Of a DNA stretch of 64,000 nucleotides, positions 16,952-43,649 are shown piece by piece. Under the pieces are notes generated by a model. The model was not told where the DNA came from. It saw nothing but the letters and a program-made list of their open reading frames with translations, and did no database searches. The position numbers were made by a program, and so were the translations under genes. Numbering within the stretch: position 1 is the first letter of the stretch; the number at the start of each line of letters is the position of its first letter. The DNA comes from a virus (lineage: Duplodnaviria > Heunggongvirae > Uroviricota > Caudoviricetes): the IMG/VR virus record IMGVR_UViG_3300032272_000001, positions 103,273 through 167,272 of that record. One strand, given 5' to 3'.

Positions 16952-17533
16952 ATGTCAGAATTTCATAGACACTCCAATGGTGGTGGATTAGTAGAGTCTA
17001 CTGCTAGTGTTGCTGATACTGCTTATATTGGACCTAATGCTGTAGTAGCTGGTAATGCTGTAGTAGAGGGCAATGCTATAGTAGATGGCAATGCTAAAGT
17101 ATTTGATAATGCTAGAGTAACTGGTCATGCTCTAGTATCTGGTAATGCTCAAATATTTGGTAATGCTCAATTATATGGTTATGCTATGGTATATGGTGAT
17201 GCTAAAGTATTTGATAAGGTTATAGTATCTGGTACTGCAAGAGTATTTGGTGATGCTGAAGTATATGATAATGCTGTAGTATCTGGTGATGCTGTAGTAT
17301 CTGGTGATGCTCTAGTATCAAAACCGTTTCCAAAAATTACTAGATCAGATGGATATGATTTTATTCTTGTACCAGATAAAGATGGTATTGATGTAATAAT
17401 TGCTGGTTGCAGATACTTTAGTATCGAAGAAGCAATTGAACATTGGACAGAAACAAGATATGGAACTAAATTAGGTGATGAAACTATGTTGATTATTGAA
17501 ACATTGCAGAAATTAAAGTCAATTATGGATTGA
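16952..17533 (+). CDS. Hexapeptide-repeat family paralog (193 aa)
   Basis: Same architecture. Confidence 0.75.
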   Translation: MSEFHRHSNGGGLVESTASVADTAYIGPNAVVAGNAVVEGNAIVDGNAKVFDNARVTGHALVSGNAQIFGNAQLYGYAMVYGDAKVFDKVIVSGTARVFGDAEVYDNAVVSGDAVVSGDALVSKPFPKITRSDGYDFILVPDKDGIDVIIAGCRYFSIEEAIEHWTETRYGTKLGDETMLIIETLQKLKSIMD

Positions 17534-17585: not shown

Positions 17586-18221
17586 ATGTCAGGATTTCAT
17601 AGACATCCAAATGGTGGTGGTCTAGTAGAGTCTACTGCATATGTAGAAGATACTGCTTTTATTGGACCAGATGCTAGAGTAACTGGTGATGCTGAAGTAA
17701 CTGGTAATGCTCAAGTATTTGGTAATGCAAGAGTATCTGGTAATGCTAAAGTATTTGATAAGGTTATGGTATATGGTCATGCTTTAGTATCTGGTAATGC
17801 TATGGTATATGGTCATGCTTTAGTATCTGGTAATGCTATGATATCTGATAATGCTGAAGTATTTGATGATGCTAGAGTATATGGCTATGCTCATGTATTT
17901 GGTAATGCTCAAATATTTGGTAATGCTGTAATATTTGGTAATGTAAAAGTAGCTGGTAAAGCTGTAATATCTGGTAATGCAAGAGTATATGGTAATGCTG
18001 TAGTATCAAAACCATTTCCACGCATTCCTAGATCAGATGGATATGATTTTATTCTTGTACCTGATAAAGATGGTATTGATAGAATCATTGCTGGATGTAG
18101 ATATTTCACAGTCCCAGAAGCAATTGAACATTGGACAGAAACGAGATATGGAACCAAATTAGGAAGCGAGACTATGTTGATTATTGAAACATTGCAGAAA
18201 TTAAAGTCAATTATTGATTGA
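17586..18221 (+). CDS. Hexapeptide-repeat family paralog (211 aa)
   Basis: Same architecture. Confidence 0.75.
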   Translation: MSGFHRHPNGGGLVESTAYVEDTAFIGPDARVTGDAEVTGNAQVFGNARVSGNAKVFDKVMVYGHALVSGNAMVYGHALVSGNAMISDNAEVFDDARVYGYAHVFGNAQIFGNAVIFGNVKVAGKAVISGNARVYGNAVVSKPFPRIPRSDGYDFILVPDKDGIDRIIAGCRYFTVPEAIEHWTETRYGTKLGSETMLIIETLQKLKSIID

Positions 18222-18521: not shown

Positions 18522-19103
18522 ATGTCAGAATTTCATAAACATCCTAATGGTGGTGGATTAGTAGAGTCTACTGCAACAGTATCTGATACTGCTTATATTG
18601 GTCCTAATGCTGTAGTAGCTGGTAATGCTGCGGTACTTGGTAATGCTATAGTATCTAATAATGCTATAGTATCTAATAATGCAAGAGTATCTAATAATGC
18701 TCAAGTATATGGCGATGCTAAAGTGTCTGGTAATGCTCAAGTATTTGATAATGCTGAAGTATATGGTGATGCTCAAGTATTTGATAAGGTTATGGTATAT
18801 GGTACTGCTAGAGTATATGATAATGCTGTAGTATCTGGTAAAGCTGTAATATCTGGTGATGCTGTAGTATCTGGTGATGCTGTAGTATCAAAACCGTTTC
18901 CAAAAATTACTAGATCAGATGGATATGATTTTATTATTGTACCTGATTTATCTGGTAGTGATAGAATCATTGCTGGCTGTAGATATTTTAGTATCGAAGA
19001 AGCAATTGAACATTGGACAGAAACAAGATATGGAACTAAACTAGGCGATGAAACACTTGAAATTATTTCTATGCTACAGAAATTAAAGTCAATTATGGAT
19101 TGA
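18522..19103 (+). CDS. Hexapeptide-repeat family paralog (193 aa)
   Basis: Only a truncated upstream module survives here (ttgacataatATG). Confidence 0.75.
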   Translation: MSEFHKHPNGGGLVESTATVSDTAYIGPNAVVAGNAAVLGNAIVSNNAIVSNNARVSNNAQVYGDAKVSGNAQVFDNAEVYGDAQVFDKVMVYGTARVYDNAVVSGKAVISGDAVVSGDAVVSKPFPKITRSDGYDFIIVPDLSGSDRIIAGCRYFSIEEAIEHWTETRYGTKLGDETLEIISMLQKLKSIMD

Positions 19104-19622: not shown

Positions 19623-20420
19623 ATGTCAGAATTTCATAAACATATCAATGGTGGTGGATTAGTAGAGTCTACTGCAACAGTTGCAGTATCTGCTTATATT
19701 GGACCTAATGCTAAAGTATTTGGTAATGCTAAAGTGTTTGGTTATGCTCTAGTATGTGATTATGCTGTAATATCTGGTGATGCTGTAATATCTGGTTATG
19801 CTAAAGTATATGATAATGCTGTAATATCTGGTGATGCTGTAGTATGTGATAATGCTAGAGTATCTGGCTATGCTCAAATATTTGGTAATGCTCAAGTATA
19901 TGGTAATGCTCTAGCATTTGATAAGGTTATGGTATATGGTGATGCAAGAGTATTTGGTAATGCTCAAGTATATGATGATGCTAGAGTATACAGCAATGCT
20001 AGAGTATCTGGTGATGCAAGAGTATTTGGTGATGCTGTAGTATTTGATAATGCTCTAGTATTTGATAAGGTTATGGTATATGGTACTGCAAGAGTATATG
20101 GTGATGCAAAAGTATATGATAATGCTATAGTAACTGGTAATGCTATAGTAACTGGTAATGCTATAGTATATGGCAATGTTCAAGTATCTGGTGATGCTAG
20201 AGTATCAAAACCATTTCCACAAATTAAAAGATCAGATAGATATGATTTCATTCTTGTGCCAGATAAAAATGGTACTGAAATAATAATTGCTGGTTGCAGA
20301 TACTTTACAGTTCCAGAAGCTATTGAACATTGGACAGAAACAAGAGGTGGAACCAAATTAGGTGATGAGACTATGCTGATTATCGAAACATTGCAGAAAT
20401 TAAAGTCAATTATTGATTGA
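19623..20420 (+). CDS. Hexapeptide-repeat family paralog (265 aa, the longest)
   Basis: About 28 repeats; promoter module at 19567..19594. Confidence 0.75.
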   Translation: MSEFHKHINGGGLVESTATVAVSAYIGPNAKVFGNAKVFGYALVCDYAVISGDAVISGYAKVYDNAVISGDAVVCDNARVSGYAQIFGNAQVYGNALAFDKVMVYGDARVFGNAQVYDDARVYSNARVSGDARVFGDAVVFDNALVFDKVMVYGTARVYGDAKVYDNAIVTGNAIVTGNAIVYGNVQVSGDARVSKPFPQIKRSDRYDFILVPDKNGTEIIIAGCRYFTVPEAIEHWTETRGGTKLGDETMLIIETLQKLKSIID

Positions 20421-22443: not shown

Positions 22444-23025
22444 ATGTCAGAATTTCATAAACACTCCAATGGTGGTGGATTAGTAGAGTCTACTGCAACA
22501 GTATCTGATACTGCTTATATTGGACCTAATGCTAGAGTATCTGGCTATGCTCAAGTATTTGGTAATGCTAGAGTATCTGGTTATGCTAGAGTATTTGGTA
22601 ATGCTCTAGTATTTGGTAATGCTATAGTATCTGATGATGCTGTAGTATCTGGTACTGCTAGAGTATATGGTGATGCTCAAGTATATGATGATGCTATAGT
22701 ATGTGATGATGCAAGAGTATATGGTTATGCTGTAATATCTGGTTGTGCTCAAGTATATGGTAATGCTGTAATATCTGGCAATGCTAGAGTATATGGTGAT
22801 GCAAGAGTATCAAAACCGTTTCCACAAATTAAAAGATCAGATAGCTATGATTTTATTCTTGTACCAGATAAAGATGGTATTGATGTAATAATTGCTGGAT
22901 GTAGATATTTCACAGTCACAGCAGCAATTGGACATTGGACAGAAACAAGAGGTGGAACCAAATTAGGTGATGAAACCTTAAAAATTATTGATATGTTACA
23001 AGAATTAAAGTCAATTATGGATTGA
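22444..23025 (+). CDS. Hexapeptide-repeat family paralog (193 aa)
   Basis: Same architecture; promoter module at about 22387. Confidence 0.75.
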   Translation: MSEFHKHSNGGGLVESTATVSDTAYIGPNARVSGYAQVFGNARVSGYARVFGNALVFGNAIVSDDAVVSGTARVYGDAQVYDDAIVCDDARVYGYAVISGCAQVYGNAVISGNARVYGDARVSKPFPQIKRSDSYDFILVPDKDGIDVIIAGCRYFTVTAAIGHWTETRGGTKLGDETLKIIDMLQELKSIMD

Positions 23026-23080: not shown

Positions 23081-23806
23081 ATGTCAGAATTTCATAACCA
23101 CTCCAATGGTGGTGGTCTTGTTGCAGATACTGCAAGAGTATCTGATACTGCTTATATTGGTCCATCTGCTAGAGTATTTGATAATGCTGTAGTATGTGAT
23201 AATGCTAAAGTATATGGTAATGCTGTAGTATTTGATTATGCTAAAGTATTTGATTATGCTAAAGTATATGGTAATGCTAAAGTATATGGTAATGCTGAAG
23301 TATTTGGTAATGCTCTAGTATGTGGTAATGCTGTAGTATATGGTAATGCTGTAGTATATGATAATGCTCAAGTATGTGATCATGTAAGAGTATCTGGTCA
23401 TGCAAGAGTATATGGTAATGCTGTAGTATACAGCAATGCTGCATTATCTGATAATGCTCTAGTATTTGGTAATGCTCAAGTATGTGATCATGCTAGAGTA
23501 TATGGTAATGCTATAGTATGTGATAATGCAAGAGTATTTGATAATGCAAGAGTATCTGGTAATGCTGTAGTATCTGGTGATGTAAGAGTATCAAAACCAT
23601 TTCCACAAATTAAAAGATCAGATAGATATGATTTTATTCTTGTGCCAGATAAAAATGGAGTCGATAGAATCATTGCTGGTTGCAGGTATTTCACAGTCCC
23701 AGAAGCAATTGGACATTGGACAAAAACAAGATATGGAACTAAATTAGGTGATGAAACACTTGAAATTATTTCTATGCTACAGAAATTAAAGTCAATTATG
23801 GATTGA
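23081..23806 (+). CDS. Hexapeptide-repeat family paralog (241 aa)
   Basis: Same architecture; promoter module at about 23024. Confidence 0.75.
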   Translation: MSEFHNHSNGGGLVADTARVSDTAYIGPSARVFDNAVVCDNAKVYGNAVVFDYAKVFDYAKVYGNAKVYGNAEVFGNALVCGNAVVYGNAVVYDNAQVCDHVRVSGHARVYGNAVVYSNAALSDNALVFGNAQVCDHARVYGNAIVCDNARVFDNARVSGNAVVSGDVRVSKPFPQIKRSDRYDFILVPDKNGVDRIIAGCRYFTVPEAIGHWTKTRYGTKLGDETLEIISMLQKLKSIMD

Positions 23807-27448: not shown

Positions 27449-28192
27449 ATGATAGGATTTCATAAACATCCAAATGGTGGTGGTCTAGTAGAGTCTACTG
27501 CAACTGTTGCAGATACTGCTTTTATTGGACCAGATGCTGTAGTATCTGGTAATGCTCAAGTATATGATAATGCTCAAGTATTTGGTGATGCTCAAGTATT
27601 TGGTGATGCTCTAGTATCTGGTAATGCTAGAGTATCTGGCTATGCTAGAATATATGATACTGCTCTAGTATCTGGTACTGCTCTAGTATCTGGCTATGCT
27701 AGAATATATGGTAATGCTGTAGTATCTGGTACTGCTCTAGTATATGGCAATGCTATAGTATCTAATAATGCAAGAGTGACTGGTGATGCTGTAGTATGTG
27801 GTGATGCTCAAGTATATGATAATGCTCAAGTATCTGGTGATGCTATAGTATATGGTTATGCTCATGTATTTGGTGATGCTAGAGTATCTGGTAATGTAAG
27901 AGTATCTGGTGATGCTCAAGTATTTGGTAATGCTATGGTATTTGGTAATGCTAGAGTAGCTGGTAATGCTGTAGTATCAAAACCATTTCCAAAAATTACT
28001 AGATCAGATAGCTATGATTTTATTCTTGTACCTGATAAAGATGGTATTGATAGAATCATTGCTGGTTGCAGATATTTCACGGTTCCAGAAGCAATTGGAC
28101 ATTGGACTAGGACAAGAGGTGGTACTAAATTAGGAACCGAAACCTTAAAAATTATTGATATGTTACAAGAATTAAAGTCAATTATTGATTGA
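27449..28192 (+). CDS. Hexapeptide-repeat family paralog (247 aa)
   Basis: Same architecture. Confidence 0.75.
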   Translation: MIGFHKHPNGGGLVESTATVADTAFIGPDAVVSGNAQVYDNAQVFGDAQVFGDALVSGNARVSGYARIYDTALVSGTALVSGYARIYGNAVVSGTALVYGNAIVSNNARVTGDAVVCGDAQVYDNAQVSGDAIVYGYAHVFGDARVSGNVRVSGDAQVFGNAMVFGNARVAGNAVVSKPFPKITRSDSYDFILVPDKDGIDRIIAGCRYFTVPEAIGHWTRTRGGTKLGTETLKIIDMLQELKSIID

Positions 28193-28925: not shown

Positions 28926-29006
28926 GGAAGAGATGGCAAATGGGGAGCCCCACAGCTCATAACTGTGTGTTTAAAAACCGAGTTGGTTCGATTCCGACCT
29001 CTTCTA
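28926..29006 (+). tRNA. Probable tRNA-Met/fMet (CAT) with an unusually long (about 14 nt) variable region; CCA encoded
   Basis: Acceptor ggaagag/ctcttct, anticodon arm cacag-ctCATaa-ctgtg, T-arm gttgg-ttcgatt-ccgac, then a-cca. The variable-loop length is atypical. Confidence 0.5.
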
Positions 29007-29013
29007 CCATTAT

Positions 29014-29086
29014 AGTTCCATAGCTCAGCGGAAAGAGCAATTGTCTTCTAAACAATAGGTCGTAGGTTCAAATCCTACTGGAACTA
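29014..29086 (+). tRNA. tRNA-Arg (anticodon TCT); CCA encoded
   Basis: Acceptor agttcca/tggaact, D-arm gctcagcggaaagagc, anticodon arm attgt-ctTCTaa-acaat, T-arm gtagg-ttcaaat-cctac, discriminator a, then cca. Confidence 0.75.
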
Positions 29087-29108
29087 CCAAACAACAAAGG
29101 AACATATC

Positions 29109-29688: not shown

Positions 29689-29785
29689 ATGAAACCAGAA
29701 CCAATTACATTATATGAAGTGTTGTTTTGGATAACATTAATTATTCTTGCTGGTTTATATGCTTTTACAAGAACAGGAACATAAT

Positions 29786-30493
29786 ATGATAGGATTTCAT
29801 AAACATCCAAATGGTGGTGGTCTAGTAGAGTCTACTGCAACTGTTGCAGATACTGCTTTTATTGGACCTAATGCTAGAGTATATGGTAATGCTCAAGTAT
29901 TAGGTTATGCTCAAGTATCTGGCAATGCTAAAGTATTTGATAATGCTAGAGTATTTGATAATGCTGTAATATTTGGTGATGCTCAAGTATGTGATCATGC
30001 AAGAGTATATGGCAATGCTGTAGTACATGGTGATGCTCTAGTATATGTTAATGCTATAGTATGTGATCATGCAAGAGTATCTGGTAATACTCATGTATAT
30101 GGTAATGCTCATGTGTATGATAATGCTGCATTATCTGATAATGCTCTAGTATATGGAAATGCTCAAGTATGTGATAATGCAAGAGTATATGATAATGCTC
30201 AAGTATTTGGTGATGCTATAGTATGTGATAATGCAAGAGTATCTGGTAATGCAAGAGTATATGGTAATGCTGTAGTGTCAAAACCATTTCCAAAAATCAC
30301 TAGATCAGATAGATATGATTTCATTCTTGTACCTGATAAAGATGGTATTGATAGAATCATTGCTGGTTGTAGATATTTTACAGTTCCAGAAGCTATTGAA
30401 CATTGGACAAAAACAAGATATGGAACTAGTTTAGGCAATGAGACTTTAATCATTATTAGAACATTACAAGAATTAAAGTCAATTATGGATTGA
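29786..30493 (+). CDS. Hexapeptide-repeat family paralog (236 aa, counted from the conserved MIGFHKHPNGGG start)
   Basis: The track ORF begins upstream at 29747. The conserved family N-terminus and RBS point to 29786. Confidence 0.75.
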   Translation: MIGFHKHPNGGGLVESTATVADTAFIGPNARVYGNAQVLGYAQVSGNAKVFDNARVFDNAVIFGDAQVCDHARVYGNAVVHGDALVYVNAIVCDHARVSGNTHVYGNAHVYDNAALSDNALVYGNAQVCDNARVYDNAQVFGDAIVCDNARVSGNARVYGNAVVSKPFPKITRSDRYDFILVPDKDGIDRIIAGCRYFTVPEAIEHWTKTRYGTSLGNETLIIIRTLQELKSIMD

Positions 30494-30544: not shown

Positions 30545-31252
30545 ATGACAGAATTTCATAAACATCCTAATGGTGGTGGATTAGTAGAATCTACTGCTAG
30601 TGTTGCTGATACTGCTTTTATTGGAATTAATGCTAGAGTATATGGTAATGCTAGAGTATCTGGTGATGCTATAGTATCTGGCTATGCTCAAATATTTGGT
30701 GATACTAGAGTATATGGTGATGCTAAAGTATGTGATCATGCAAGAGTATATGGAAATGCTAAAGTATGTGATAATGCTATAGTATATGGTCATGCTCATG
30801 TATATGATAATGCTGTAGTATCTGGTTATGCTGTAGTATCTGGTTATGCTCAAGTATCTGATGATGCTCAAGTATTTGGTCATTCTAGCGTATCTGGTAA
30901 TGCTCTAGTATTTGGTCATTCTAGAGTATATGATGATGCAAGAGTATCTGGTACTGCTCTAGTATCTGGTACTGCTCTAGTATATGGTGATGCAAGAGTA
31001 TCTGGTGATGTAAGTGTATATGGTGATGCTAAAGTATCAAAACCGTTTCCACAAATTAAAAGATCAGATGGATATGATTTTATTATTGTACCAGAGTTAT
31101 CAGGTAATGATAGAATAATTGCTGGTTGCAGATATTTCACAGTCCCAGAAGCTATTGAACATTGGACAGAAACAAGAGGTGGAACCAAATTAGGTGATGA
31201 GACTATGCTGATTATCGAAACACTTCAACGAATGAAAGAGATTTATGGATGA
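30545..31252 (+). CDS. Hexapeptide-repeat family paralog (235 aa)
   Basis: Same architecture; C-term ends ...LQRMKEIYG. Promoter module at about 30490. Confidence 0.75.
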   Translation: MTEFHKHPNGGGLVESTASVADTAFIGINARVYGNARVSGDAIVSGYAQIFGDTRVYGDAKVCDHARVYGNAKVCDNAIVYGHAHVYDNAVVSGYAVVSGYAQVSDDAQVFGHSSVSGNALVFGHSRVYDDARVSGTALVSGTALVYGDARVSGDVSVYGDAKVSKPFPQIKRSDGYDFIIVPELSGNDRIIAGCRYFTVPEAIEHWTETRGGTKLGDETMLIIETLQRMKEIYG

Positions 31253-31536
31253 ATGTATTGTTAATGGATCGTATAATTAGTGGTGAATTTAGAGAACCAG
31301 GTTTTGATCCAAATCAGGTTCAGATTTATGACTATTATAAAAGAGTAGTCATTCGAGATTTTAATATTACTCCAACGACGGATAACCCGTTACGTATAGT
31401 TTGGATTAAACAATATGTCACTGAATATGGAGGAAATGAATATGGATTAGCACTTAAAGAAGCAGAAAAAGCGTGTTTTCTAATTAAAACACATTATATG
31501 ATTATGGTTTATAACAAAGAGGTAAAAAATGTTTAA
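31249..31536 (+). CDS. hypothetical protein
   Basis: 95 aa; ATGA overlap. Confidence 0.5.
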   Translation: MNVLLMDRIISGEFREPGFDPNQVQIYDYYKRVVIRDFNITPTTDNPLRIVWIKQYVTEYGGNEYGLALKEAEKACFLIKTHYMIMVYNKEVKNV

Positions 31537-32479
31537 TATGAAACGTCTGGGAATCATCTCAGCACTAATTGCATCTATTGGACTAGCAGGTTGCAGCGGC
31601 GAGTATGCAGAAGTGCCGCTTGCTTATGTGGGTAAGATTAAAACAAAGGATGGTATTAAGCCAGGCTTGATTAATCCATCACAGTTCCGTCTACCACTAT
31701 GTTGGTACTATTGTGATAAATTGTTACTTGCAGAAACTTCAGACTTCAAAAGTAAAGAATCATTCCGTGGTAAGAATAACTCCCTATATATGCCAAAGTC
31801 TGATTTGATGATGGAATTCGATGTTCGAGGAACATTTGCTGTTGCCCGCGATGATCAGCGTCTTGAACGTGTGTTCGCAAACATTCCGGTAGAAGCAACG
31901 GACTTTCCTGGTTCATCTGGCGTAATTACTGCGGATAACATCTATAAGACCTACGCTGTACCGATTATTCGTGATGTAGTTAGGAGAGTGGTGGTAAATT
32001 ATAGCATAACGGAAATCAATTCAAATCGAGCTATCGCGAACGCGGTACTGAATAGAGAATTGCTAAAAGAATTTAAGTCAGGTAAAATACCAATCGATAT
32101 TAAACGCTTTGGTCTTGCTGATATTAGATTTCCACCAATGATCGTTCAGCAAAAGCAAGTCGCCGCTGAACGTAGGATTGCAATTGAACAGGAAGAAGCT
32201 AATAAGCAAGTTGCTTTGGTCAAGCTTGAAACTGAACTTGAAACCGCTAAAGCCAAACGCGCTATTAAACGAGAATTGGCGCAAGCTGCGGCAGAAGAGA
32301 ATAAAATTCTTGCTGACTCTGTAACACCTAAGTATCTTGCTTATAAGGATCGTGAGATTCTTGAGAAGTTAACTACAAGCAATAACACAAAATGGATCTC
32401 GCCTGATATTCTAGGCACCATGGCAGGTAAAATTGCAGTAGGTAATGGAATTGGTAATGAACATCGACGGAAACATTAA
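31529..32479 (+). CDS. SPFH/band-7 (prohibitin/HflC-like) domain lipoprotein
   Basis: Signal peptide with lipobox LAGC at residues 20-23, then an SPFH-like core and a coiled-coil (QEEANKQVALVKLETELETAKAKRAIKRELAQAAAEENK). Confidence 0.55.
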   Translation: MFNMKRLGIISALIASIGLAGCSGEYAEVPLAYVGKIKTKDGIKPGLINPSQFRLPLCWYYCDKLLLAETSDFKSKESFRGKNNSLYMPKSDLMMEFDVRGTFAVARDDQRLERVFANIPVEATDFPGSSGVITADNIYKTYAVPIIRDVVRRVVVNYSITEINSNRAIANAVLNRELLKEFKSGKIPIDIKRFGLADIRFPPMIVQQKQVAAERRIAIEQEEANKQVALVKLETELETAKAKRAIKRELAQAAAEENKILADSVTPKYLAYKDREILEKLTTSNNTKWISPDILGTMAGKIAVGNGIGNEHRRKH

Positions 32480-33837: not shown

Positions 33838-36800
33838 TCAAACCCAACATTGGCCTGATTGACCCCCACCACCACCATAACCAGAGGAACTTTCGCTCGG
33901 CATTTCTTGTTCTGGTCTATTAACACCAACACCACTAGAATTATTCACATTCTCATTAGATTTTTTATCTTGTTTTGGTTTACTTCCTGCTGATTTTTCT
34001 TCAAGAACTTTCTTTTCGATCTTATGTTCAACTTCCATAGAATCAGTTATTTGTTCCTTTTCAGTTCTAGGAGCTTTAATTTCTGGTTCTGGCACAATCA
34101 TTGGTTTTTCAACAATAGAACCTTCCATTCCAGAATCATCTACAGATTTCTTTATATTTTCTATTGGCTCAGAAGTTTTTTGTTTTGCTTGTACTGTTGG
34201 TCCAGATATGGTTGCGTCTGGCTGCACAACATATTCTGGTTTTTGTACAGGAGAAGCAACGCCTCTAATTCTTGAAAGCTCTTTTGCAGCTTCTGTTGTA
34301 TCAGGAATTTCATTTTGTTGCTGTATATTATTTAAAGCATCATTAAGATTAAATTTTCTGCTTTCTTTTCTTCCTTGTCTCCATGCATGAGCATAATCTC
34401 CAGTCATGCCACCGCCCCAAGTAGCAGAAGTACCAAAACCAACATGAAGACGACCATCACCCATATAGCCGCCATTTCTACCAGTACCAACACCAGTAGC
34501 TCCAGCTTTGGTAGATGCACGGATAAATGCAGCGATCTTGATTCTATCTTTTGAATTAGATGATTTTAATCTTCTTCTTCTACCATTTTCATTAACATAT
34601 AAATCAAGATCAGCAGCATTGCCTAAATCATGGCGGGTTGATCCTTTTCTTTTACCTCCAGATCCTCTTTTGGCTTGACCACCAGACCAAACATCAACTT
34701 CAACACCAGCTTCACCAGCTGCATATTCTAATACACTATTTAATTTATTTGATAATTTTCTTTTTCGAATACCAGCATGTTTCATTTGTTTTTGGCGAAC
34801 AGTACCAAGTTTAATTTCTTTGTTGGTATCACCAAAATTATTTTTTATGTTTGGTTTCATTTCATCAACAAATGCTGATTGTGTTAATTTTTGTTCGTTA
34901 GTTTCTTTTGGTTTATACGATTTCAATTCTTTTTGTGTTTTATTTACCCAATCTTGAGTGTTTCTTACAGTACCTATACCATGTTGTCTTGCACCAGACA
35001 TTTTATCCTTACGAGATAAAGTTTCGCCAGTAGAAGTCATGTGTGTTATTGTTTGTGATCGTCTAGCAGATGCTGCAACATGAGCAGATGAATTTTGTGT
35101 TGCTAATTTACTATAATTAGAACCACGCAAAACTTCATTATGTGCACTATCCAATCGAGCGAATAAATGAGGATCTTTTTTAAGTTTGGCAAGATAGTTT
35201 TTATAATTTTGATATCCACCAGTATTTGTTCGTAATGGTTCGTAATATGCAGCTGTAAGATTTTGTGTTATATGTTTATCTTTTTCTGTCATACCACGAT
35301 TATATGGAGTTTCCATTAATGCAGCAAGATCTTGTTTTGTTGCTCTTGGCCCAATTTCTGCTAATGTTAAAGCATAAAAATGTAATTTTTGATCGCGACT
35401 TAGTTTATTACCACCAAGTTGCATTCTTTGTTTGGTTAATGGATGTTTATCGTCTGGTATACTGCCAGGAGAACCGCTCATGTTCATGCCAATATTTGGT
35501 GCTTCGCCTGGACTAACACTATATTGTTGCGAGCCAGCATAATTAGAACCACTTGAAGCAAAATTAGAGCCAGAATAGCCAGAATAGCCAGAAGATCCAG
35601 CTTGGCCGCCAAATGGCATAGCACCACCAGCAGCTACAGCACTAGGTTTTCCTAGTATGCCACGATTGCCAGCAATATGTTCAAAACCTGATGGTAAAGC
35701 ACCAAATTTCATAAATTGAGCCATTTGTTGTTGTTCAGCAAATTGTTGTGGTGATTGATGCCATTTGTTAGTGGCACCGACATACATTTTACCACCTTTA
35801 CCGCCAAAATTATAAGCACCAGTGGATCTACCACCATGACCAGTCATAACATCACTACCTGTACGCATACCGCCTTGACGCTCTTCTTTACGGATTGTGC
35901 GACCAACATCAACTCGGGTTGATTGATCATCAATTTTTCCAGAACCAGAAAATTGTTTCATATAATCTTTTGTTTCTGGTTTTTTTATTGATTGTGTTTT
36001 TGACTGTACTTTGGTTATTTTTGTTCTTGCTTTGTTTCTATCAAGAATTTGTGTAGCAGCTTTTGGTATTTTATTAATAATATCATTTTTTTGAAAATTA
36101 TTCAAATTATATGAATTCAATTCAACCATGAAACTATTAATCAAATTTGTACGTTCTACTGGATCATGTGTTTTGAAATAAGAATTTTTAAGTTCAGATA
36201 CAGCAACCAACGCTTTTTCATGATCATCAAGATTTTTATCTTTTTTGATTTCTGCCAAAACTTTAGCATTATTGGAGACGGTTGATTTGCTTCCTAATTG
36301 TATTCTATTCCTTAATCTAGTGAGAGCATCATGCTTTTCTTTTTTTGTTTTTGCATTCTTTATATCAGCAGCATCATTTTTTATATCATTCTTATTGTCA
36401 TTAGACAACAAAAATGCTAGGACAGCATATGGTGCAGCAGCTTTTGGGAATGCATGAGTCAATAATGTTTTTAATATATTTTTAGCACCACCAGCGAGCC
36501 AAGCCCCAGCAAGACCAGCAAAAACACTAGCAGATAAAGAAGGAACTATAGATGGTGTGGATTTTTGTTTATTATCAAATTTTGGTTTATTAAATTCTTC
36601 TTCACCAGATTTTCTTTTAATTTCATTCCATAGTCGCTGATATTCTTTTTTATTTGTTCTGTTATAATCATGAATATTACTAACAAGAAGTTGCATACGA
36701 TTGCCATACCGCGACACTCTATCTTCTACATTACCAATAGCTCTACGTGTAGCAATAAATCTTTCATCAACACTCTTTTTATTATCTGTCATTATACGAT

Positions 36801-36981
36801 ATTGTGAATTGATATCACTATTAATCATAATATCAGTCGCCATATCACGCCGCAAATTATCAATATTCAATTGCGGTGGTTGTGCTGAATTGTTTTTATT
36901 TGTTGGTAAAGAAGAGTTTTTAGTGTCCTTAGCTATATTATTGCGAGGGACTTTACCAACCATAAATTTATTTATTTTCAT
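33838..36981 (-). CDS. Large (1047 aa) protein with a peptidase M15-like (LAS zinc D,D-/L-Ala-D-Glu peptidase) motif and Gly/Ser/Gln low-complexity regions. Candidate virion-associated cell-wall hydrolase, tail hub or tape-measure-like
   Basis: GSTRHDLGNAADLDLY matches S.H..G.A.D, and the downstream GDGRLHVGF supplies the second His. Poly-G/S tracts (SGYSGYSGSNFASSGSNYAGS; GYGGGGGQSGQ). It is adjacent to tail genes. Confidence 0.5.
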   Translation of the reverse strand: MKINKFMVGKVPRNNIAKDTKNSSLPTNKNNSAQPPQLNIDNLRRDMATDIMINSDINSQYRIMTDNKKSVDERFIATRRAIGNVEDRVSRYGNRMQLLVSNIHDYNRTNKKEYQRLWNEIKRKSGEEEFNKPKFDNKQKSTPSIVPSLSASVFAGLAGAWLAGGAKNILKTLLTHAFPKAAAPYAVLAFLLSNDNKNDIKNDAADIKNAKTKKEKHDALTRLRNRIQLGSKSTVSNNAKVLAEIKKDKNLDDHEKALVAVSELKNSYFKTHDPVERTNLINSFMVELNSYNLNNFQKNDIINKIPKAATQILDRNKARTKITKVQSKTQSIKKPETKDYMKQFSGSGKIDDQSTRVDVGRTIRKEERQGGMRTGSDVMTGHGGRSTGAYNFGGKGGKMYVGATNKWHQSPQQFAEQQQMAQFMKFGALPSGFEHIAGNRGILGKPSAVAAGGAMPFGGQAGSSGYSGYSGSNFASSGSNYAGSQQYSVSPGEAPNIGMNMSGSPGSIPDDKHPLTKQRMQLGGNKLSRDQKLHFYALTLAEIGPRATKQDLAALMETPYNRGMTEKDKHITQNLTAAYYEPLRTNTGGYQNYKNYLAKLKKDPHLFARLDSAHNEVLRGSNYSKLATQNSSAHVAASARRSQTITHMTSTGETLSRKDKMSGARQHGIGTVRNTQDWVNKTQKELKSYKPKETNEQKLTQSAFVDEMKPNIKNNFGDTNKEIKLGTVRQKQMKHAGIRKRKLSNKLNSVLEYAAGEAGVEVDVWSGGQAKRGSGGKRKGSTRHDLGNAADLDLYVNENGRRRRLKSSNSKDRIKIAAFIRASTKAGATGVGTGRNGGYMGDGRLHVGFGTSATWGGGMTGDYAHAWRQGRKESRKFNLNDALNNIQQQNEIPDTTEAAKELSRIRGVASPVQKPEYVVQPDATISGPTVQAKQKTSEPIENIKKSVDDSGMEGSIVEKPMIVPEPEIKAPRTEKEQITDSMEVEHKIEKKVLEEKSAGSKPKQDKKSNENVNNSSGVGVNRPEQEMPSESSSGYGGGGGQSGQCWV

Positions 36982-37190
36982 TAGTATCCCAATTCTCGCC
37001 TAGCTTTTTCTAAAGACGCTTCTTGATTTTCTGCATCAGATAATTTCTTTGCGTGTTCTTGTAGCATTAAAGAATACACATCTAATTCAAATGGTATCAT
37101 ATTTTCATATTCAGTAATTGTGCAAAAATTATTCAGATGACAGAAATTGAAAGCATTGCTATACCATGCCTCCAATGTATGTTCTGCCAT
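36981..37190 (-). CDS. hypothetical small protein
   Basis: 69 aa; ATGA overlap with its neighbours. Confidence 0.45.
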   Translation of the reverse strand: MAEHTLEAWYSNAFNFCHLNNFCTITEYENMIPFELDVYSLMLQEHAKKLSDAENQEASLEKARRELGY

Positions 37191-37903
37191 CAGATAAGAA
37201 AAAAATCATATAACGATGATAGTTCAATTTTATGTTCTTCTCCTTCAGAATCTTTATATGATCCAGAATGTTTAAATGATGGAGCAGAATTAAGATAATT
37301 TTCAATTTTTTCGTATACTGGAGCAGGAAGACTATTAATCCATTCGTTTAATTCGTTTTTGTCCATTGCAGATAGATCAATATTTCCAGATTCTTGCTTT
37401 AATGTCACAACAGAAAATAACATCATCAAACCCATATATTTGCCTTGATTAAATACTTCTTCTGACATTATATCATCATATTCTTTTGTCATATAAGCAT
37501 AAACAGGAACATCTCGAAGAACTAATGAAGTAGATTCATTAATAGAAATTTCATTAGATCTTTTTGTTGTTTTGGGAGCATCTATTTGATCAAGATCAAT
37601 GACGTATCTTCCACCATTATCATATTCCAAAGCAATTTTATTTGATACTGATTGTGACCGTAATTTAATAAGAATAGATGTTAAATCATACATTGTCATG
37701 TCATCAATATCTGTGCTGGTACGAACAACACAATTTGATATAATTTGATGTATTGCTTTAAGTATGTCACTTGCAGATTCTGATGTTTTCGCCATCAAAA
37801 GAATTTTTTGTTCTTTGATAGTCATTGGACGCATTTCTAATTGAGTTTTCTTTGATACGATATCTGCTTTAAATGTTGGCATATCAAATTTTGGTAAATT
37901 CAT
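37190..37903 (-). CDS. putative baseplate/tail structural protein
   Basis: 237 aa; placement inside the tail module. Confidence 0.4.
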   Translation of the reverse strand: MNLPKFDMPTFKADIVSKKTQLEMRPMTIKEQKILLMAKTSESASDILKAIHQIISNCVVRTSTDIDDMTMYDLTSILIKLRSQSVSNKIALEYDNGGRYVIDLDQIDAPKTTKRSNEISINESTSLVLRDVPVYAYMTKEYDDIMSEEVFNQGKYMGLMMLFSVVTLKQESGNIDLSAMDKNELNEWINSLPAPVYEKIENYLNSAPSFKHSGSYKDSEGEEHKIELSSLYDFFLI

Positions 37904-37914
37904 GTTTAAATTCC

Positions 37915-38559
37915 TTAGAGTAATCCAGCACCAGTAAGTGCTTGTTGTTGTGGTTGATTTGGTTGACTTTCAGATTTATTTATTTGCTCGCTCCAATCCA
38001 AATATTCAATGAATACTGTGAATTGAGATATTTGATTTTGATCAGCCCATGATAATTGAATTAAATTAACATTACTTGGAAATGCTTCTCTTAAAAAAAC
38101 TTCTTTAATCTGAAAACCGTCTTCTGACATAACCTTTATATTCATATCAACAGCATAATCTTTTTTGTATGCTATTTCGTATGGCTTACCAACACTAAAT
38201 TCTGAATTATTATCCATGTTAGCACCATCATGAGGTATAATGGTTTGCATCCAATCATTGAAATAATTCCATGTATCAAAATCACCATCAACATTGAATA
38301 CTAATTGTACTTGTTGGAAATTTGGACTAAATGGTCTTACTTCATTGGTTCCATAGGTATGTCTTCTGACATTACCAGTCATTATCTGATATCCAGGAAG
38401 AACAGCATCAGAACAATAAAATTTCAAATCTCTGGCTATTTCTCCACCTATCTTTGGTATGATGGTAGGAACAGGTATATTTATTTCAAATTTATTTGTT
38501 CTTGCATAACCATTTCTTTCGTTTATTTTACTAGTAAATTCTGATACATTGAATGACAT
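37915..38559 (-). CDS. Tail tube protein family (T4 gp19/gp54-like)
   Basis: SEFTSKINERNGYARTNKFEINIP / LKFYCSDAVLPG / IKEVFLREAFPSNVNLIQLSWADQNQISQFTVFIEYLDWSE parallel T4 gp19 FESGDFARPNLFQVEIS / FQCKATALPAG / IEIKGLWPTNVGELQLDWDSNNEIQTFEVTLALDYWE. Confidence 0.65.
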   Translation of the reverse strand: MSFNVSEFTSKINERNGYARTNKFEINIPVPTIIPKIGGEIARDLKFYCSDAVLPGYQIMTGNVRRHTYGTNEVRPFSPNFQQVQLVFNVDGDFDTWNYFNDWMQTIIPHDGANMDNNSEFSVGKPYEIAYKKDYAVDMNIKVMSEDGFQIKEVFLREAFPSNVNLIQLSWADQNQISQFTVFIEYLDWSEQINKSESQPNQPQQQALTGAGLL

Positions 38560-39287
38560 TAAGAATTCCTTGCACTTTCTGCATGTACAAATGCTTCGCT
38601 CTTTTTCTCAAATCTAGCAATATCAAGAAAAATAACATTTTCCCATTCAAAGCCAGGTATTTTAATAAGATTTGGTGACACTACATGATCTTTACGATAC
38701 ATTTTAATAGCTGGTTTGAACTGCCTATGCGAAGCAGCTCCTTTCAAAACTTCATATGTTATTCTGGAATATAGATTTGGATCATAATTTTGATGTGTTT
38801 CATCGAAACCATTACGCATCAATCTATCATTTATAGCATCCATTAAGAGTGCTCTTTGTCTGGGATATAGATAATGAAGATTGAGACCAAGAAAATGATC
38901 ATTGCTTGGCTTTCCTTTAATCATAGCATTATTGCTTATCAAAAAAATTAAAGGGTATCTATCCCAATATGGTAATTTATCACGCCATTTGGCTTTGTAT
39001 ATGAATAAATACAATCCACCAATATTGGTTTTTGAAATATTTGTTTTGCCAACTGTTTCTGCTTTACTAGCAACGTTTGTTATTGCAGCAGTTGAAGCGC
39101 CTCTACCTCGGGGAGCATTACTTTGTTCGTGGAATGCACGAAGGAATCTATTGCGCTCTACCCTATCACGATTACCAGTGGCCATGTCTACCCAAGCAGC
39201 CATAGCATCGCGGGCTTGATTTAGCCATCGTCCTGCTACAGAAGCACGACTTCTGAATATTTGAGTAAATGATTGTCGTCTAGCCAT
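38559..39287 (-). CDS. putative baseplate/tail structural protein (gp48-like by position)
   Basis: 242 aa; a minus-strand late-promoter TATAAATA lies upstream at 39323..39330. Confidence 0.4.
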   Translation of the reverse strand: MARRQSFTQIFRSRASVAGRWLNQARDAMAAWVDMATGNRDRVERNRFLRAFHEQSNAPRGRGASTAAITNVASKAETVGKTNISKTNIGGLYLFIYKAKWRDKLPYWDRYPLIFLISNNAMIKGKPSNDHFLGLNLHYLYPRQRALLMDAINDRLMRNGFDETHQNYDPNLYSRITYEVLKGAASHRQFKPAIKMYRKDHVVSPNLIKIPGFEWENVIFLDIARFEKKSEAFVHAESARNS

Positions 39288-39494: not shown

Positions 39495-39866
39495 TCAGCT
39501 AGAATTGGTATTTATATCATTCATAAAATCACACCAAACATTTCTGCATTGACGAAACAAATAATTTCCGCTTTCATTAAGAGAAATTGTTTTCAATCTA
39601 GAATCAGAAGAATTTTTGGTGATATTTAATATATTTTTTGTTTCTAGTCTACGAATATTGGTTGAAAGTGTTGAACGATCAATATCCAATTTTTTTGATA
39701 AATTTGAAATTGTTGTTGTTTTGTTTTCATGTATAACCATAATAATCGAAAATTGACCATTTGTCAATCCAAATGGGCGTAAAAGATCATCAAATTTTCG
39801 TGAAATTATTCTTGCCTTTTTTTGTTGTTCTAGACATTTACACATATCAGAGTCTTTTACCAACAT
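39495..39866 (-). CDS. MarR-family winged-helix transcriptional regulator
   Basis: LTNGQFSIIMVIHENKTTTISNLSKKLDIDRSTLSTNIRRLETKNIL shows the typical MarR wHTH pattern. Confidence 0.6.
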   Translation of the reverse strand: MLVKDSDMCKCLEQQKKARIISRKFDDLLRPFGLTNGQFSIIMVIHENKTTTISNLSKKLDIDRSTLSTNIRRLETKNILNITKNSSDSRLKTISLNESGNYLFRQCRNVWCDFMNDINTNSS

Positions 39867-40245: not shown

Positions 40246-40500
40246 ATGAAAAATCTTATTATCGCTGCTGTTGTGTCTCTTGCTATGGCAACATCTGCTA
40301 TTGCTGCTGGTAACGATGGAGATGAATTTGTTGATGCTAAGTTCCCACCGGCATCTATCGGAACATCCTTTGATCCATCAACAGTAGCGCCTCCACAAGA
40401 ATCGAGCGATTGTGATGGTCTTTCTGGTGTGTCATGGAAAGAATGTTATCATTCACTTCCAATCGAATCCGCAGAAGATGTCAAAAGCGCATCCAATTAA
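40246..40500 (+). CDS. small secreted protein (signal peptide MKNLIIAAVVSLAMATSAIAAG)
   Basis: Start at the internal Met with RBS aggaaaa. The track ORF begins upstream at 40201. Confidence 0.55.
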   Translation: MKNLIIAAVVSLAMATSAIAAGNDGDEFVDAKFPPASIGTSFDPSTVAPPQESSDCDGLSGVSWKECYHSLPIESAEDVKSASN

Positions 40501-40530
40501 TCGTTGGAACAAATAACTTTATAGAACAGA

Positions 40531-40557
40531 AAAAAGGCGGTTTTACCCGCCTTTTTT
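40531..40557. terminator. Strong bidirectional rho-independent terminator (aaaaaggcgg-ttttac-ccgccttttt)
   Basis: GC stem flanked by A5 and T6 runs between convergent genes. Confidence 0.8.
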
Positions 40558-40560
40558 AAT

Positions 40561-41238
40561 TTATAGAACTTCTACAAAAGAATTATATGCAGAAACGATA
40601 TCTTCTTGTGCTGTAATCGGCCTCCCAACAACAATATAATCTACCCCTTGTTCTTTAGCAAATTCTGGTGTAAATACATTAGTTTTATCATGACAATTTA
40701 TATCATCACCTTCATGTCTAATTGCTGGAGATATACAAATCATATCTGGATATGTTGATTTGATGCTAGATACATAATTTGCAGGACAAACTACACCATC
40801 CAAATCATAAAAATCGCAAAGTGCTGGCAAATCAACAATATTTCTGTCTGGTAATTTATTGTTAGTTGTTATACCAACAATAATAATTTTTGTTTTTGGT
40901 GGTTTTGATTTTTGTTTTTCATATATCTCTTTTGCCTTTTTGGCTCCAGATAAAATATTTCTATCAAGGGCACAAATAGTCAACATATCAACATCATTAC
41001 GCATAACATTAAGAACTGTTTTTATGATGGTGTCTTCAATATCATACAATTTTAAATCAAGAAATATATTACAGTTATTTTTTTGTAATTCATTAACAAA
41101 TTTCATCCCAGAGCCAACAAACAGTTCTAGACCAATTTTATACCATATTGTTTGATCTAAATCTTCCAAAGATTCTATCGCATAATCATATGCAAGGGTA
41201 TCATTAGGATAATCCAAAGCAACTATAAGTTCTGTCAT
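40561..41238 (-). CDS. pyrF: Orotidine 5'-phosphate decarboxylase
   Basis: LIVALDYPN, KIGLELF, FLDLKLYDIEDT and C-terminal IVVGRPIT motifs match OMPdecase. There is a Lys-rich insertion KQKSKPPKTK. Confidence 0.75.
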   Translation of the reverse strand: MTELIVALDYPNDTLAYDYAIESLEDLDQTIWYKIGLELFVGSGMKFVNELQKNNCNIFLDLKLYDIEDTIIKTVLNVMRNDVDMLTICALDRNILSGAKKAKEIYEKQKSKPPKTKIIIVGITTNNKLPDRNIVDLPALCDFYDLDGVVCPANYVSSIKSTYPDMICISPAIRHEGDDINCHDKTNVFTPEFAKEQGVDYIVVGRPITAQEDIVSAYNSFVEVL

Positions 41239-41601: not shown

Positions 41602-41859
41602 TTATTGGACAGTCGCATCTCGTTGGATACGTTCTGTCCTTTTACTTTGAAAATAAGAATCTGGTTGTGTTGGGCCATCAAGCCCAACAACTTCCCATGG
41701 ATCAGAATCACCTTTAAGATAAACGAATTTACCTATAGCAACCTTAACACCATTTGTTCCTTTTTCTGGAATCCAGATACATTGTTCACTATAACCAGAT
41801 CCGTCTTGAAGTTTTCGTTTTAATCTTGTCTGAATATAATTCAATTTATTTTTCTCCAT
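41602..41859 (-). CDS. hypothetical protein
   Basis: 85 aa. Confidence 0.45.
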   Translation of the reverse strand: MEKNKLNYIQTRLKRKLQDGSGYSEQCIWIPEKGTNGVKVAIGKFVYLKGDSDPWEVVGLDGPTQPDSYFQSKRTERIQRDATVQ

Positions 41860-42220
41860 ATAATGATGGTATGTTGATATATTCCATCAAAATTTCTTCT
41901 GGGTTATAGAATATATATTCTGGTTCGGTTGCAATTCCACCAAGATCAAGAAAATTTGCAATATTTAATATTTCCTTAATATCATAAAATTCTGTTTTTG
42001 GTGAAATAAGGCGGGTTTCAGATAAAAGTGCAATAATTTCATTACACCACATTACATGATTATAATATGGTGTAGTTTTTCTATAATCATCTAAATAATC
42101 CACCACTGTTTTTACTATAGAAACAGATGGATCAATAAACAGTAAACCTTCATCGTTTGTTTTTACATCTACATCATCGATGATGTAATTCAATTTTTTT
42201 AAAAAAATTTCATTATTCAT
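41846..42220 (-). CDS. hypothetical acidic protein
   Basis: 124 aa. Confidence 0.5.
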   Translation of the reverse strand: MNNEIFLKKLNYIIDDVDVKTNDEGLLFIDPSVSIVKTVVDYLDDYRKTTPYYNHVMWCNEIIALLSETRLISPKTEFYDIKEILNIANFLDLGGIATEPEYIFYNPEEILMEYINIPSLYGEK

Positions 42221-42225
42221 TGTTA

Positions 42226-43152
42226 TTACCTCGGACCATATAAGGAAGACACTTCACAATATGGCATATCATCATATTCATGAATAAGAGGTTGAGCAAA
42301 TTCTATAGTGTATTCAGCTTTTAGAGCACGGGCTTTAGCAGTAACTGAAACTTGTTCAATGCTGATTGCCATATCTGGTAATGGTTCTGGTTCTCCGATA
42401 GGTGGAACACGATACACATATTCTGGCTCTATTGTATCAACATCTATATTACTTTCAAGAACAGTTTTCATACGTTCAAGCGTAGTGATTAAATGATCTG
42501 TTTTCGCGCGATTTTCATCGAAAATCGCAAGGAATTCGTTACACCAACCATTAAGTCTTTTATTTGTCAAATTTTTATCAATAAATTGTTTTAGATAATT
42601 TTTAATGATTATAGAATTGCTAGAATCTTTAAATAATAGGTAATTATATGTGTTTAAAAATGACACAGCACTATCAATACTTTGCAAATAAACTTCTTCG
42701 CTTATCAATACTGCTTTATAATCGTTTTCAGACACATTTTTAATACATTGTTCCCAATTCATGGTGTTTTCTTTTTCTTTATAATACTTATATTCTGGAG
42801 AGATAAGTTTAAAAGTAGTTAATGCAATCATTTCTGCATATTCTACATACCTAAGAGCCTCTAAGAAGGTATCATCTTGTCGATTTATATCCAAATCATT
42901 AGAAAAATATGCAATCAATTCATTACACCATGCAATATTATGTTTTTTTGTATCTTGTGTTTCATCATCTAAGTGATTTAGATAATTCAGATAACATTTC
43001 AGATAAAACTTTATGTTTTTACCATCATGAGATCCGCTGCGCCAGTGACACATGCCGGTATTGTGTCTTTTTAGAGCTGTTTTAAAATACGCAAGAGATT
43101 CATAATATCCTTCTGCCATCACATATTCATTAGCGTCATATTCATCCATCAT
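42226..43152 (-). CDS. hypothetical protein
   Basis: 308 aa. Shares the CNE(I/F)IA(I/Y)(L/F)S motif with 41846..42220 (CNEIIALLS / CNELIAYFS / CNEFLAIFD), so the two may be distant paralogs. Confidence 0.5.
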   Translation of the reverse strand: MMDEYDANEYVMAEGYYESLAYFKTALKRHNTGMCHWRSGSHDGKNIKFYLKCYLNYLNHLDDETQDTKKHNIAWCNELIAYFSNDLDINRQDDTFLEALRYVEYAEMIALTTFKLISPEYKYYKEKENTMNWEQCIKNVSENDYKAVLISEEVYLQSIDSAVSFLNTYNYLLFKDSSNSIIIKNYLKQFIDKNLTNKRLNGWCNEFLAIFDENRAKTDHLITTLERMKTVLESNIDVDTIEPEYVYRVPPIGEPEPLPDMAISIEQVSVTAKARALKAEYTIEFAQPLIHEYDDMPYCEVSSLYGPR

Positions 43153-43613
43153 TTTTTCTTATCCTTAAATAATTCATTTTCAGTTATTATAGTAAAGTCT
43201 ATTTTTCTATCTGCACACCATTCTTTGGCCGCTCGCCATTTCGCAGAATTGATCATGAAAGTGGCGTGTTCCTGTATCATCCGTTTGGATGGCGGCCCCT
43301 TTTTCTTCCGAGTTGGTCGAATGGTTTCTTTGTAAGGTTTAATTTCTATCAGAGTTGTGGTTACTTGTCCAGTCTTTTTTTTCATTTTGACAAGAAAATC
43401 TGGGTGGTAATTATGCCACTTATGATCAACCGGACTGTAATATGGTATTTTGATGTCTTCGCTCACCCACATTAGAACGTTTTCATTTCTATCACAAAAT
43501 TTACAAAATTCTAATTCCCATAATGACCTCCATACAATTTTGTTTATATCACCTTTATATTTTTTTGGGTTTTCGGGATGATATCTACCCTTATTTTTGC
43601 TTCTTGCTGGCAT
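43149..43613 (-). CDS. PD-(D/E)XK-family nuclease-like protein
   Basis: YHPDFLV ... TTLIEIKP matches the D-x(n)-E-x-K core. Basic N- and C-termini. Confidence 0.45.
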   Translation of the reverse strand: MPARSKNKGRYHPENPKKYKGDINKIVWRSLWELEFCKFCDRNENVLMWVSEDIKIPYYSPVDHKWHNYHPDFLVKMKKKTGQVTTTLIEIKPYKETIRPTRKKKGPPSKRMIQEHATFMINSAKWRAAKEWCADRKIDFTIITENELFKDKKK

Positions 43614-43623
43614 ATTTTATTCC

Positions 43624-43649
43624 TATAAATACTACTGAATATATTTATA
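43624..43649. promoter_or_regulatory. Divergent late promoters (TATAAATA on + at 43624..43631 and on - at 43642..43649)
   Basis: Both motifs are exact, in the 50-bp gap between divergent genes. Confidence 0.5.

Follow-up and report, generated by a model that had tools for sequence, protein, structure and literature searches.

Does a T4-like phage encode its own enzyme for the last step of pyrimidine nucleotide synthesis, and does that enzyme still do what its cellular relatives do? The question was raised by an open reading frame (ORF) in a 64,000-nucleotide stretch of a tailed-phage genome (IMG/VR record IMGVR_UViG_3300032272_000001, positions 103,273 to 167,272; hereafter the window). The ORF starts with ATG, occupies exactly positions 40561-41238 on the minus strand and encodes a protein of 225 amino acids, which an original prediction, made from the letters alone, had named PyrF, i.e., orotidine 5'-monophosphate (OMP) decarboxylase (OMPDC). 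To our knowledge, records of this last step in the synthesis of uridine 5'-monophosphate (UMP) are scarce for tailed phages, and there is none from the structural-gene island of a T4-like phage. Our analysis suggests that the ORF encodes a working but strongly diverged OMPDC, kept by the phage as an auxiliary gene for nucleotide supply, a reading to which we assign a probability of about 0.65.

Family, fold and catalytic residues

Homology of the phage protein to OMPDC is genuine and well over chance level. The three motifs pointed out in the original prediction were all present, namely LIVALD (residues 4-9), LDLKLYDI (residues 60-67) and VGRPI (residues 204-208), and the HMMER search that it had proposed returned the OMPdecase family PF00215 with 100.9 bits (cut-off 27), in a full-length match of residues 3-219 to profile positions 2-219 of 221. 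The best NCBIfam models were pyrF equivalogs (147, 92, and 84 bits), and the ten best solved structures by sequence were all OMPDCs, with that of Bacillus subtilis (1dbt) at the top (E = 5.6e-23). An AlphaFold2 monomer model, built from an alignment of 52 sequences, had a mean predicted local distance difference test score (pLDDT) of 90.7 and a predicted template modeling score (pTM) of 0.88. When this model was compared to the PDB using Foldseek, the top 50 matches were all OMPDCs, and 1dbt, a (beta/alpha)8 barrel, was matched with a template modeling (TM) score of 0.85 and a root mean square deviation of 2.6. A further match, to PF22556, was dismissed as weak (E = 0.063).

To place single residues, the window protein and its orthologue from a second phage (see below) were aligned with 143 diverse PyrF representatives and 23 PyrFs of IMG/VR contigs. 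The register of the region around the LTS motif differed among HMMER, MAFFT-auto and L-INS-i, and we adopted that of L-INS-i (V121 as V and T125 as the T of LTS), since the sequence KLIGVGCTT of the orthologue then fits the consensus KLLGVTVLT gap-free. Both phage proteins have the full set of catalytic Asp and Lys residues, on which the original prediction had staked its assignment: D9 at the end of strand 1, K34 at the end of strand 2, and D61, K63, and D66 of the DxKxxD motif, in columns that are 99 to 100% conserved in the 143 representatives. Also retained in both are T70, T125 (the Thr of LTS), R174 (of PGIR) and G205-R206 (of VGR). In OMPDCs, the residues at these positions are the catalytic ones and the ligands of the ribose hydroxyls, of pyrimidine N3/O4 and of the phosphate; the enzyme is a homodimer whose active sites are shared over the interface, with D66' and T70' contributed by the partner subunit. 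From our own alignment with the Methanothermobacter thermautotrophicus (Mt) sequence, we take T125 to correspond to Mt S127 and to S154 of the yeast enzyme (Sc).

The protein is 27 to 39% identical to bacterial type-1 PyrFs, such as those of B. subtilis (1dbt) and Escherichia coli (1eix), and resembles them in length class, in the (beta/alpha)8 fold and in the D, K, DxKxxD, T, R, and GR residues. It departs from them in having K185 in place of the gripper-loop Gln, C89 in place of a His, TTN for LTS and DIEDT for DIPNT, as well as in a shorter segment after the LTS motif, in scores under the equivalog cut-offs and in being encoded by a phage, between gp4 and gp2. The name PyrF was appropriate as far as homology to OMPDC goes, but with those scores and without the conserved Gln this is not a typical PyrF.

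The stretch KQKSKPPKTK, in contrast, had been singled out as an insertion untypical of cellular PyrFs, and this did not hold up, as residues 108-117 form an ordinary variable surface loop between alpha4 and beta5. The segment from H89 to V121 spans 31 residues compared to a median of 26, and 21% of the 143 representatives are equal or longer; B. subtilis PyrF aligns through the region with one single-residue gap, and the orthologue has a loop of equal length without the lysines. The total Lys content of the protein (7.6%) can be treated as equal to the family mean (7.1%). Model confidence is lower within the loop, and its Lys-rich make-up may reflect the AT-rich genome.

An orthologue in a second phage and the rarity of phage pyrF

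A word-indexed search of 5.8 billion proteins recovered only the protein itself and cellular PyrFs that were at most 38% identical; the two nearest of these that were looked up (P0002 and P0004) lie in ordinary bacterial settings (gmk-pyrF and lapA-lapB-pyrF). One closer relative was found in an exhaustive HMMER search of 1.84 billion cluster representatives. This protein (P0121; 225 amino acids, 45% identity, E = 1.4e-48) is encoded on a 169.7-kb phage contig (JBFPEK010001830.1 of GCA_041156885.1; locus L006), whose arrangement is T4-like as in the window: gp53, gp48, gp4, small ORFs, pyrF, a convergent small ORF and a gene for a MarR-family regulator. In both phages, the accessory island between gp4 and gp2 thus contains pyrF and the MarR gene. 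The second protein is an orthologue that agrees with the window protein in length, in the location of its gene behind gp4 and near MarR, and in the six deviating positions described below. It has A184-T185 instead of the D184-K185 of the window protein and keeps the G of PGIR and the S of VSS, and its genome has a GC content of 41.7% compared to 33.9% for the window phage.

The finding of a second phage with a syntenic orthologue argues that the gene was present in a common ancestor and is not a product of contamination or chimeric assembly. In each phage, the GC content of pyrF is close to that of the genome (29.8% versus 33.9% in the window phage, 41.7% versus 41.7% in the other), and the two genes have the start MTELI.ALD and the overlap with the upstream ORF in common. 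Columns of the conserved core (at least 90% conserved) were 77% identical between the two phage proteins, compared to 38% elsewhere (Fisher p = 2.6e-5), which points to purifying selection on the catalytic core in proteins that as a whole diverge fast. The ratio of nonsynonymous to synonymous substitution rates between the two genes (about 0.2) is indicative only, as synonymous differences are essentially saturated (pS = 0.72) and the genomes differ in GC content.

No third member of this clade was detected with an alignment of the two phage proteins in IMG/VR, in GTDB genomes (best matches at most 39% identical and scattered over many phyla) or in JGI metagenomes (at most 35% identical), and an IMG/VR scan with the window protein alone found nothing. 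As the best cellular matches are spread over phyla in this way, no donor lineage can be named.

The original prediction had called pyrF unusual in phages, and the surveys agree with this. A PHROGs scan of the protein gave no family, only 11 of 50,697 GenBank phage records had a match (26 to 31% identity), several of which are probably host DNA in records that are poorly curated or cover prophage ends, and a profile-derived scan of IMG/VR yielded 27 pyrF loci whose products did not exceed 33% identity to the window protein. Some of the IMG/VR loci lie mid-contig and adjoin phage or nucleotide-metabolism genes; in one (L028), pyrF is near a gene for a Baseplate_J protein and one for an intein-containing class II ribonucleotide reductase, and in another (L030) it is near a class II ribonucleotide reductase gene. 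These viral PyrFs belong to the same enzyme family, but the canonical H...LTS...D(Q/H)xR signature is kept by all 23 that were aligned, and none is encoded in a T4-like gp4-gp2 island; they are independent acquisitions. On two of the contigs (L026, 5472-6368, on a contig of 267 kb, and L022, 62 kb), we noted a PyrF with His for the gripper Gln and, a few kb away, a gene for a full-length elongation factor Ts (PF00889, 174 bits).

Phage pyrF is therefore rare, with precedents. It has been listed once among the viral auxiliary genes of estuarine viromes (PMC13288924), and pyrE, whose product feeds PyrF in the preceding step of the pathway, has an established place among the genes of T4-like cyanophages (PMC9983427). 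The pyrE and purine-synthesis genes of T4-like cyanomyoviruses are likewise host-derived genes of de novo nucleotide synthesis, although pyrE encodes a different enzyme and these phages are of a different lineage, the identity between gp6 of the window and its cyanophage counterpart being only about 33%. In BFVD, the viral structures that matched best were UMP synthases of giant viruses (Marseillevirus LCMAC103 and Fadolivirus), which also contain a virus-encoded OMPDC domain. These are, however, eukaryote-type fusions of orotate phosphoribosyltransferase and OMPDC of about 400 amino acids, 18 to 19% identical to the phage protein, and their carriers are viruses of eukaryotes.

Does the remodeled protein still decarboxylate OMP?

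In the reading that we prefer, an ancestor of a small T4-like myovirus lineage would have acquired pyrF long ago, the lineage would have retained it, and the protein would still convert OMP to UMP and CO2. The chemistry would be performed by K63 with D61, D66' and K34, while the ribose would be held by D9, K34, and T70', the pyrimidine by T125 and the phosphate by R174 with G205-R206. K185 (T in the orthologue) takes the place of the gripper Gln; closure over the substrate would be looser, and K185, as a Lys, could still contact the phosphate. The gene would be co-transcribed as the last of the run starting with gp4 and ended by the hairpin directly behind it, and the phage would benefit from extra UMP and, via UMP, from extra dTTP and dCTP/CTP for replicating its 176-kb, 34%-GC genome. 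The original prediction had likewise proposed a boost of UMP, for an AT-rich genome in a nutrient-limited host; of this suggested purpose, the sequence itself bears out no more than the AT-richness (34% GC). How costly the missing Gln might be can be gauged from the yeast enzyme, in which the substitution Q215A raised the barrier for kcat/Km by 2.2 kcal/mol, with a 60 to 80-fold higher Km and a less than 2-fold change in kcat, and S154A and R235A cost 5.8 and 5.6 kcal/mol, respectively (PMC12874384). Since S154 and R235 have their equivalents in the phage proteins (T125 and R206, respectively), only the Gln, the least costly of these three residues, is gone.

A number of observations nevertheless speak against a conventional, active OMPDC. 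The scores for the NCBIfam equivalogs NF001273 (146.8 bits; cut-off 193) and TIGR01740 (91.9 bits; cut-off 92.3) stayed below the level for a safe transfer of exact function. Of 35 near-invariant columns (conserved to 90% or more), eight are altered in each phage protein, whereas the 143 representatives deviate on average at 1.09 (standard deviation 1.44, maximum 8). Six of these positions are altered in both phages, with P68 replaced by E in the window protein and K in the orthologue, H89 (a 91%-conserved His) by C in both, L124 by T in both, S126 by N and G, Q185 by K and T, and R187 by N and S. At the position of the gripper Gln (Sc Q215/Mt Q185, in the DQxR motif), where 135 of the 143 representatives have Q and the other eight H, neither K nor T occurs in any of the 143 or in any of the 23 IMG/VR PyrFs, all of which have Q or H. 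The segment following LTS, which forms the pyrimidine-covering loop in OMPDCs, comprises 22 residues compared to a median of 33, and is thus about 11 residues shorter. Furthermore, pyrF evolves faster than the structural genes, the two phages being 68 to 85% identical in their structural proteins but 44% in PyrF (41 to 55% for the genes of the accessory island, with 43% for MarR). Neither pyrE nor any other gene of de novo pyrimidine synthesis was found in the part of the phage contig that was inspected for nucleotide genes (positions 49.6-132.3 kb, 83 of 176 kb), and the candidate promoter of the run is of the late type, an unexpected timing for a nucleotide-supply gene.

Such changes could be the mark of a neofunctionalized PyrF, in which the catalytic core was kept while the gripper and pyrimidine-cover loops were remodeled, and which acts on another 6-carboxy or modified pyrimidine nucleotide or binds OMP or UMP for another purpose. 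The six shared substitutions are indeed concentrated in the two closing elements and beside DxKxxD. The gripper loop is two residues over the median length and contains a Cys-His pair (C182-H183) common to both phage proteins, and the combination of this pair with C89 was absent from every other PyrF examined. The shortened covering segment, the sub-threshold equivalog scores and the lack of pyrE in the inspected region fit this explanation as well. However, the residues known to contact the ribose and pyrimidine N3/O4 are all retained, as is the phosphate-binding Arg; no neighboring gene points to a modification pathway, and there is no evidence to suggest an alternative substrate. At four of the six shared positions (68, 126, 185, and 187), the two phages have different residues (E/K, N/G, K/T, and N/S), which looks more like relaxed constraint than like a new specificity common to both. 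We therefore regard neofunctionalization as unlikely, and a change of substrate, for example to a deoxy or base-modified orotidylate, as a similarly doubtful proposition. Relaxed constraint taken further would make the gene a decaying or barely active relic, captured from a host and drifting under weak selection with little value for fitness. The rate at which it evolves relative to the core genes, its deviation from the family at many conserved positions and its confinement to two phages in all collections searched could be read in this manner, yet both phages, though 55% divergent in this protein, have an intact full-length ORF, the catalytic residues are all kept, core columns are preferentially preserved, the two genes agree in their start and in overlapping the upstream ORF, and the model is confidently folded. 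A relic is thus improbable.

The remaining explanations concern the identity of the protein and the integrity of the contig. Other members of PF00215, i.e., 3-hexulose-6-phosphate synthase (HPS) or 3-keto-L-gulonate-6-phosphate decarboxylase, have the fold and the DxKxxD motif in common with OMPDC, and the C-terminal part of the phage protein weakly matched an HPS-containing model. This match (17.9 bits; cut-off 274) spans only the common phosphate-binding end, though, and is far below those of the pyrF models, and the PDB matches by both sequence and fold were to OMPDCs only. Metal-dependent members of PF00215 have a Glu at the position of the strand-2 Lys. Given the pyrF models as best matches and the OMPDC-type K34 at the end of strand 2, such an identity was rejected as very improbable. 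The notion that host DNA had been mis-joined to a phage contig had no supporting evidence and was raised only since several of the GenBank matches resemble host DNA. Against it, phage structural genes flank pyrF within 2 to 3 kb, a 176-kb ENA contig and an independent Logan assembly both show the same arrangement, and it recurs in a second, divergent phage; moreover, the GC content of the gene is phage-like and the nearest cellular PyrF is only 36 to 39% identical. With independent assemblies and a second phage giving the same junctions and arrangement, a chimera is hardly conceivable and was rejected. The working, strongly diverged OMPDC remains the reading that we favor.

Genomic setting and significance of the gene

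The claim of the original prediction that pyrF is an auxiliary metabolic gene in a phage context was borne out: it is the homologue of a cellular enzyme, flanked by phage genes and syntenic in a second phage, and it qualifies as a divergent variant of an already known kind of auxiliary gene. Its neighbors are homologues of T4-like myovirus genes (Table 1), and include, beyond gp4 and divergent from it, gp48, gp53, a gene for a gp5-like protein, gp25, gp6, gp7, and gp8; gp32 and the gene for the late-transcription co-activator gp33 lie near the start of the window.

Table 1. Features of the window around pyrF and the paralogous repeat family (L006, locus of the orthologous pyrF in the second phage)
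Feature	Position in window	Strand	Evidence or remark
Paralogues	7011-7751, 7748-8254, 8251-8742	(-)	
Paralogues	15748-16062, 16226-16897, 16952-17533, 17586-18221, 18522-19103, 19623-20420	(+)	
Paralogues	22444-23025, 23081-23806, 27449-28192, 29747-30493, 30545-31252	(+)	
gp26, baseplate hub	37190-37903	(-)	same strand as pyrF, downstream
Tail-tube family protein	37915-38559	(-)	same strand as pyrF, downstream
gp2, DNA end protector	38559-39287	(-)	same strand as pyrF, downstream
MarR-family winged-helix regulator, gp4-gp2 accessory island	39495-39866	(-)	PF01047, 42.9 bits; 43% identical homologue in L006
Small convergent ORF, 84 amino acids, signal-peptide-like N terminus	40246-40500	(+)	tblastn match in L006 10751-10861, 41% identity
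Intrinsic-terminator-like hairpin AAAAAAGGCGG-GTAAAA-CCGCCTTTTTT	40530-40557	(-)	starts 4 nt past the pyrF stop
Divergent OMPDC homologue (pyrF-like)	40561-41238	(-)	ORF, PF00215, AlphaFold2 model, Foldseek, residue alignment
Cys-rich ORF upstream of pyrF, 117 amino acids	41235-41588	(-)	Logan assembly call; 48% identical homologue in L006
Three tightly packed ORFs without assigned function, from gp4 to the ORF next to pyrF	41602-41859, 41846-42220, 42226-43152	(-)	
gp4-type head completion, first gene of the run ending in pyrF	43149-43613	(-)	phrog_218 head closure, 180 bits; 85% identical in L006
TATAAATA, T4-type late-promoter-like box	43642-43649	(-)	pattern search; 29 nt upstream of gp4

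On the strand of pyrF, gp4, three ORFs, a Cys-rich ORF and pyrF itself follow one another closely, with pyrF at the end of the run. The stop codon of the Cys-rich ORF, which had no Pfam or PHROG match, overlaps the start of pyrF (ATGA), suggesting translational coupling. The hairpin behind pyrF has a stem of 11 pairs, five of them GC, with flanking runs of A and T (five such sites were found in the terminator scan versus 1.7 expected), and owing to this A-run/T-run symmetry it could work both ways, for pyrF and for the convergent small ORF. Since the late-promoter-like box is not enriched in the window (12 occurrences versus 14.3 expected), it is by its position alone a candidate promoter for the run from gp4 to pyrF. 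Among the three ORFs following gp4, the sole match was a stretch of 34 residues in that of 42226-43152 which fits the Gp23 major capsid profile (29.4 bits); this ORF and its neighbor at 41846-42220 also have a repeated module in common (WCNE[LFI]IA.F/LS ... EPEY.[YF]).

The window corresponds to about positions 58,344-122,343 of the 176,125-bp ENA contig ERZ27251236:k141_5634585, and the same junctions were seen in independent Logan contigs of run SRR9045818. A megablast search of GenBank phages with 24 kb of the window gave no match, and the identity of gp6 to its counterparts in Caulobacter phage Cr30, Sinorhizobium phages phiM12 and phiN3, Pelagibacter phage HTVC008M and cyanophages did not exceed about 35%; judged by these comparisons, the window phage is distant from all cultured phages.

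Several other features of this genome were recorded. At least 14 paralogous genes on both strands between 7011 and 31252 make up a multicopy family that is very large by the standards of T4-like phages; their products begin with MSEFHKHSNGGGLVESTA and end in a conserved domain of about 65 amino acids (SKPFPQIKRSDRYDFILVPDKDGIDRIIAGCRYF...), and the GNAxVx beta-solenoid repeats in between (Pfam YdcK beta-solenoid, 65 bits) vary in number. A further ORF (9481-10236, minus strand) joins pentapeptide repeats to a C terminus resembling that of the paralogues. Also on the minus strand are a homologue of Tad6, an inhibitor of Thoeris defense (4045-4731; PF25188, 123 bits), a weak ArdA antirestriction-like domain (12509-13018; PF07275, 30.8 bits) and an ORF of 1047 amino acids that adjoins the gp26 hub gene and had no Pfam or PHROG match (33838-36981). 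The plus strand carries adjacent genes for tRNA-Met(CAT) and tRNA-Arg(TCT) (28926-29089) and a gene for an SPFH/Band 7 lipoprotein-like protein with a signal-peptide/lipobox-like N terminus (31529-32479; PF01145, 28.9 bits). Just upstream of the window, at about 49.7-53.8 kb of the contig (L036, 1-4173), lies a PrkA-DUF444-SpoVR trio, which we take to be homologous to the bacterial starvation-response operon yeaG-yeaH-ycgB and which would then be a further host-like auxiliary cluster. Just downstream, at about 126-132 kb (L034, 16765-22637), a glycosyltransferase of family 25, a faintly QueC-like protein, a carbamoyltransferase and a radical-SAM protein are encoded together, possibly with a role in surface sugars or base modification.

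Genes of nucleotide synthesis are a recognized class of phage auxiliary genes, and an active enzyme would add pyrF to the pyrimidine genes known from T4-like phages (pyrE, thyX). The protein would also be a natural OMPDC variant without the gripper Gln and with a shortened pyrimidine cover, the elements that enzymologists have mutagenized. Should it be true that OMP is not the substrate, this would point to an unrecognized reaction of pyrimidine nucleotides during phage infection, one new to phage nucleotide metabolism. Either way, the finding concerns one accessory gene in two uncultured phages, and its wider impact is modest.

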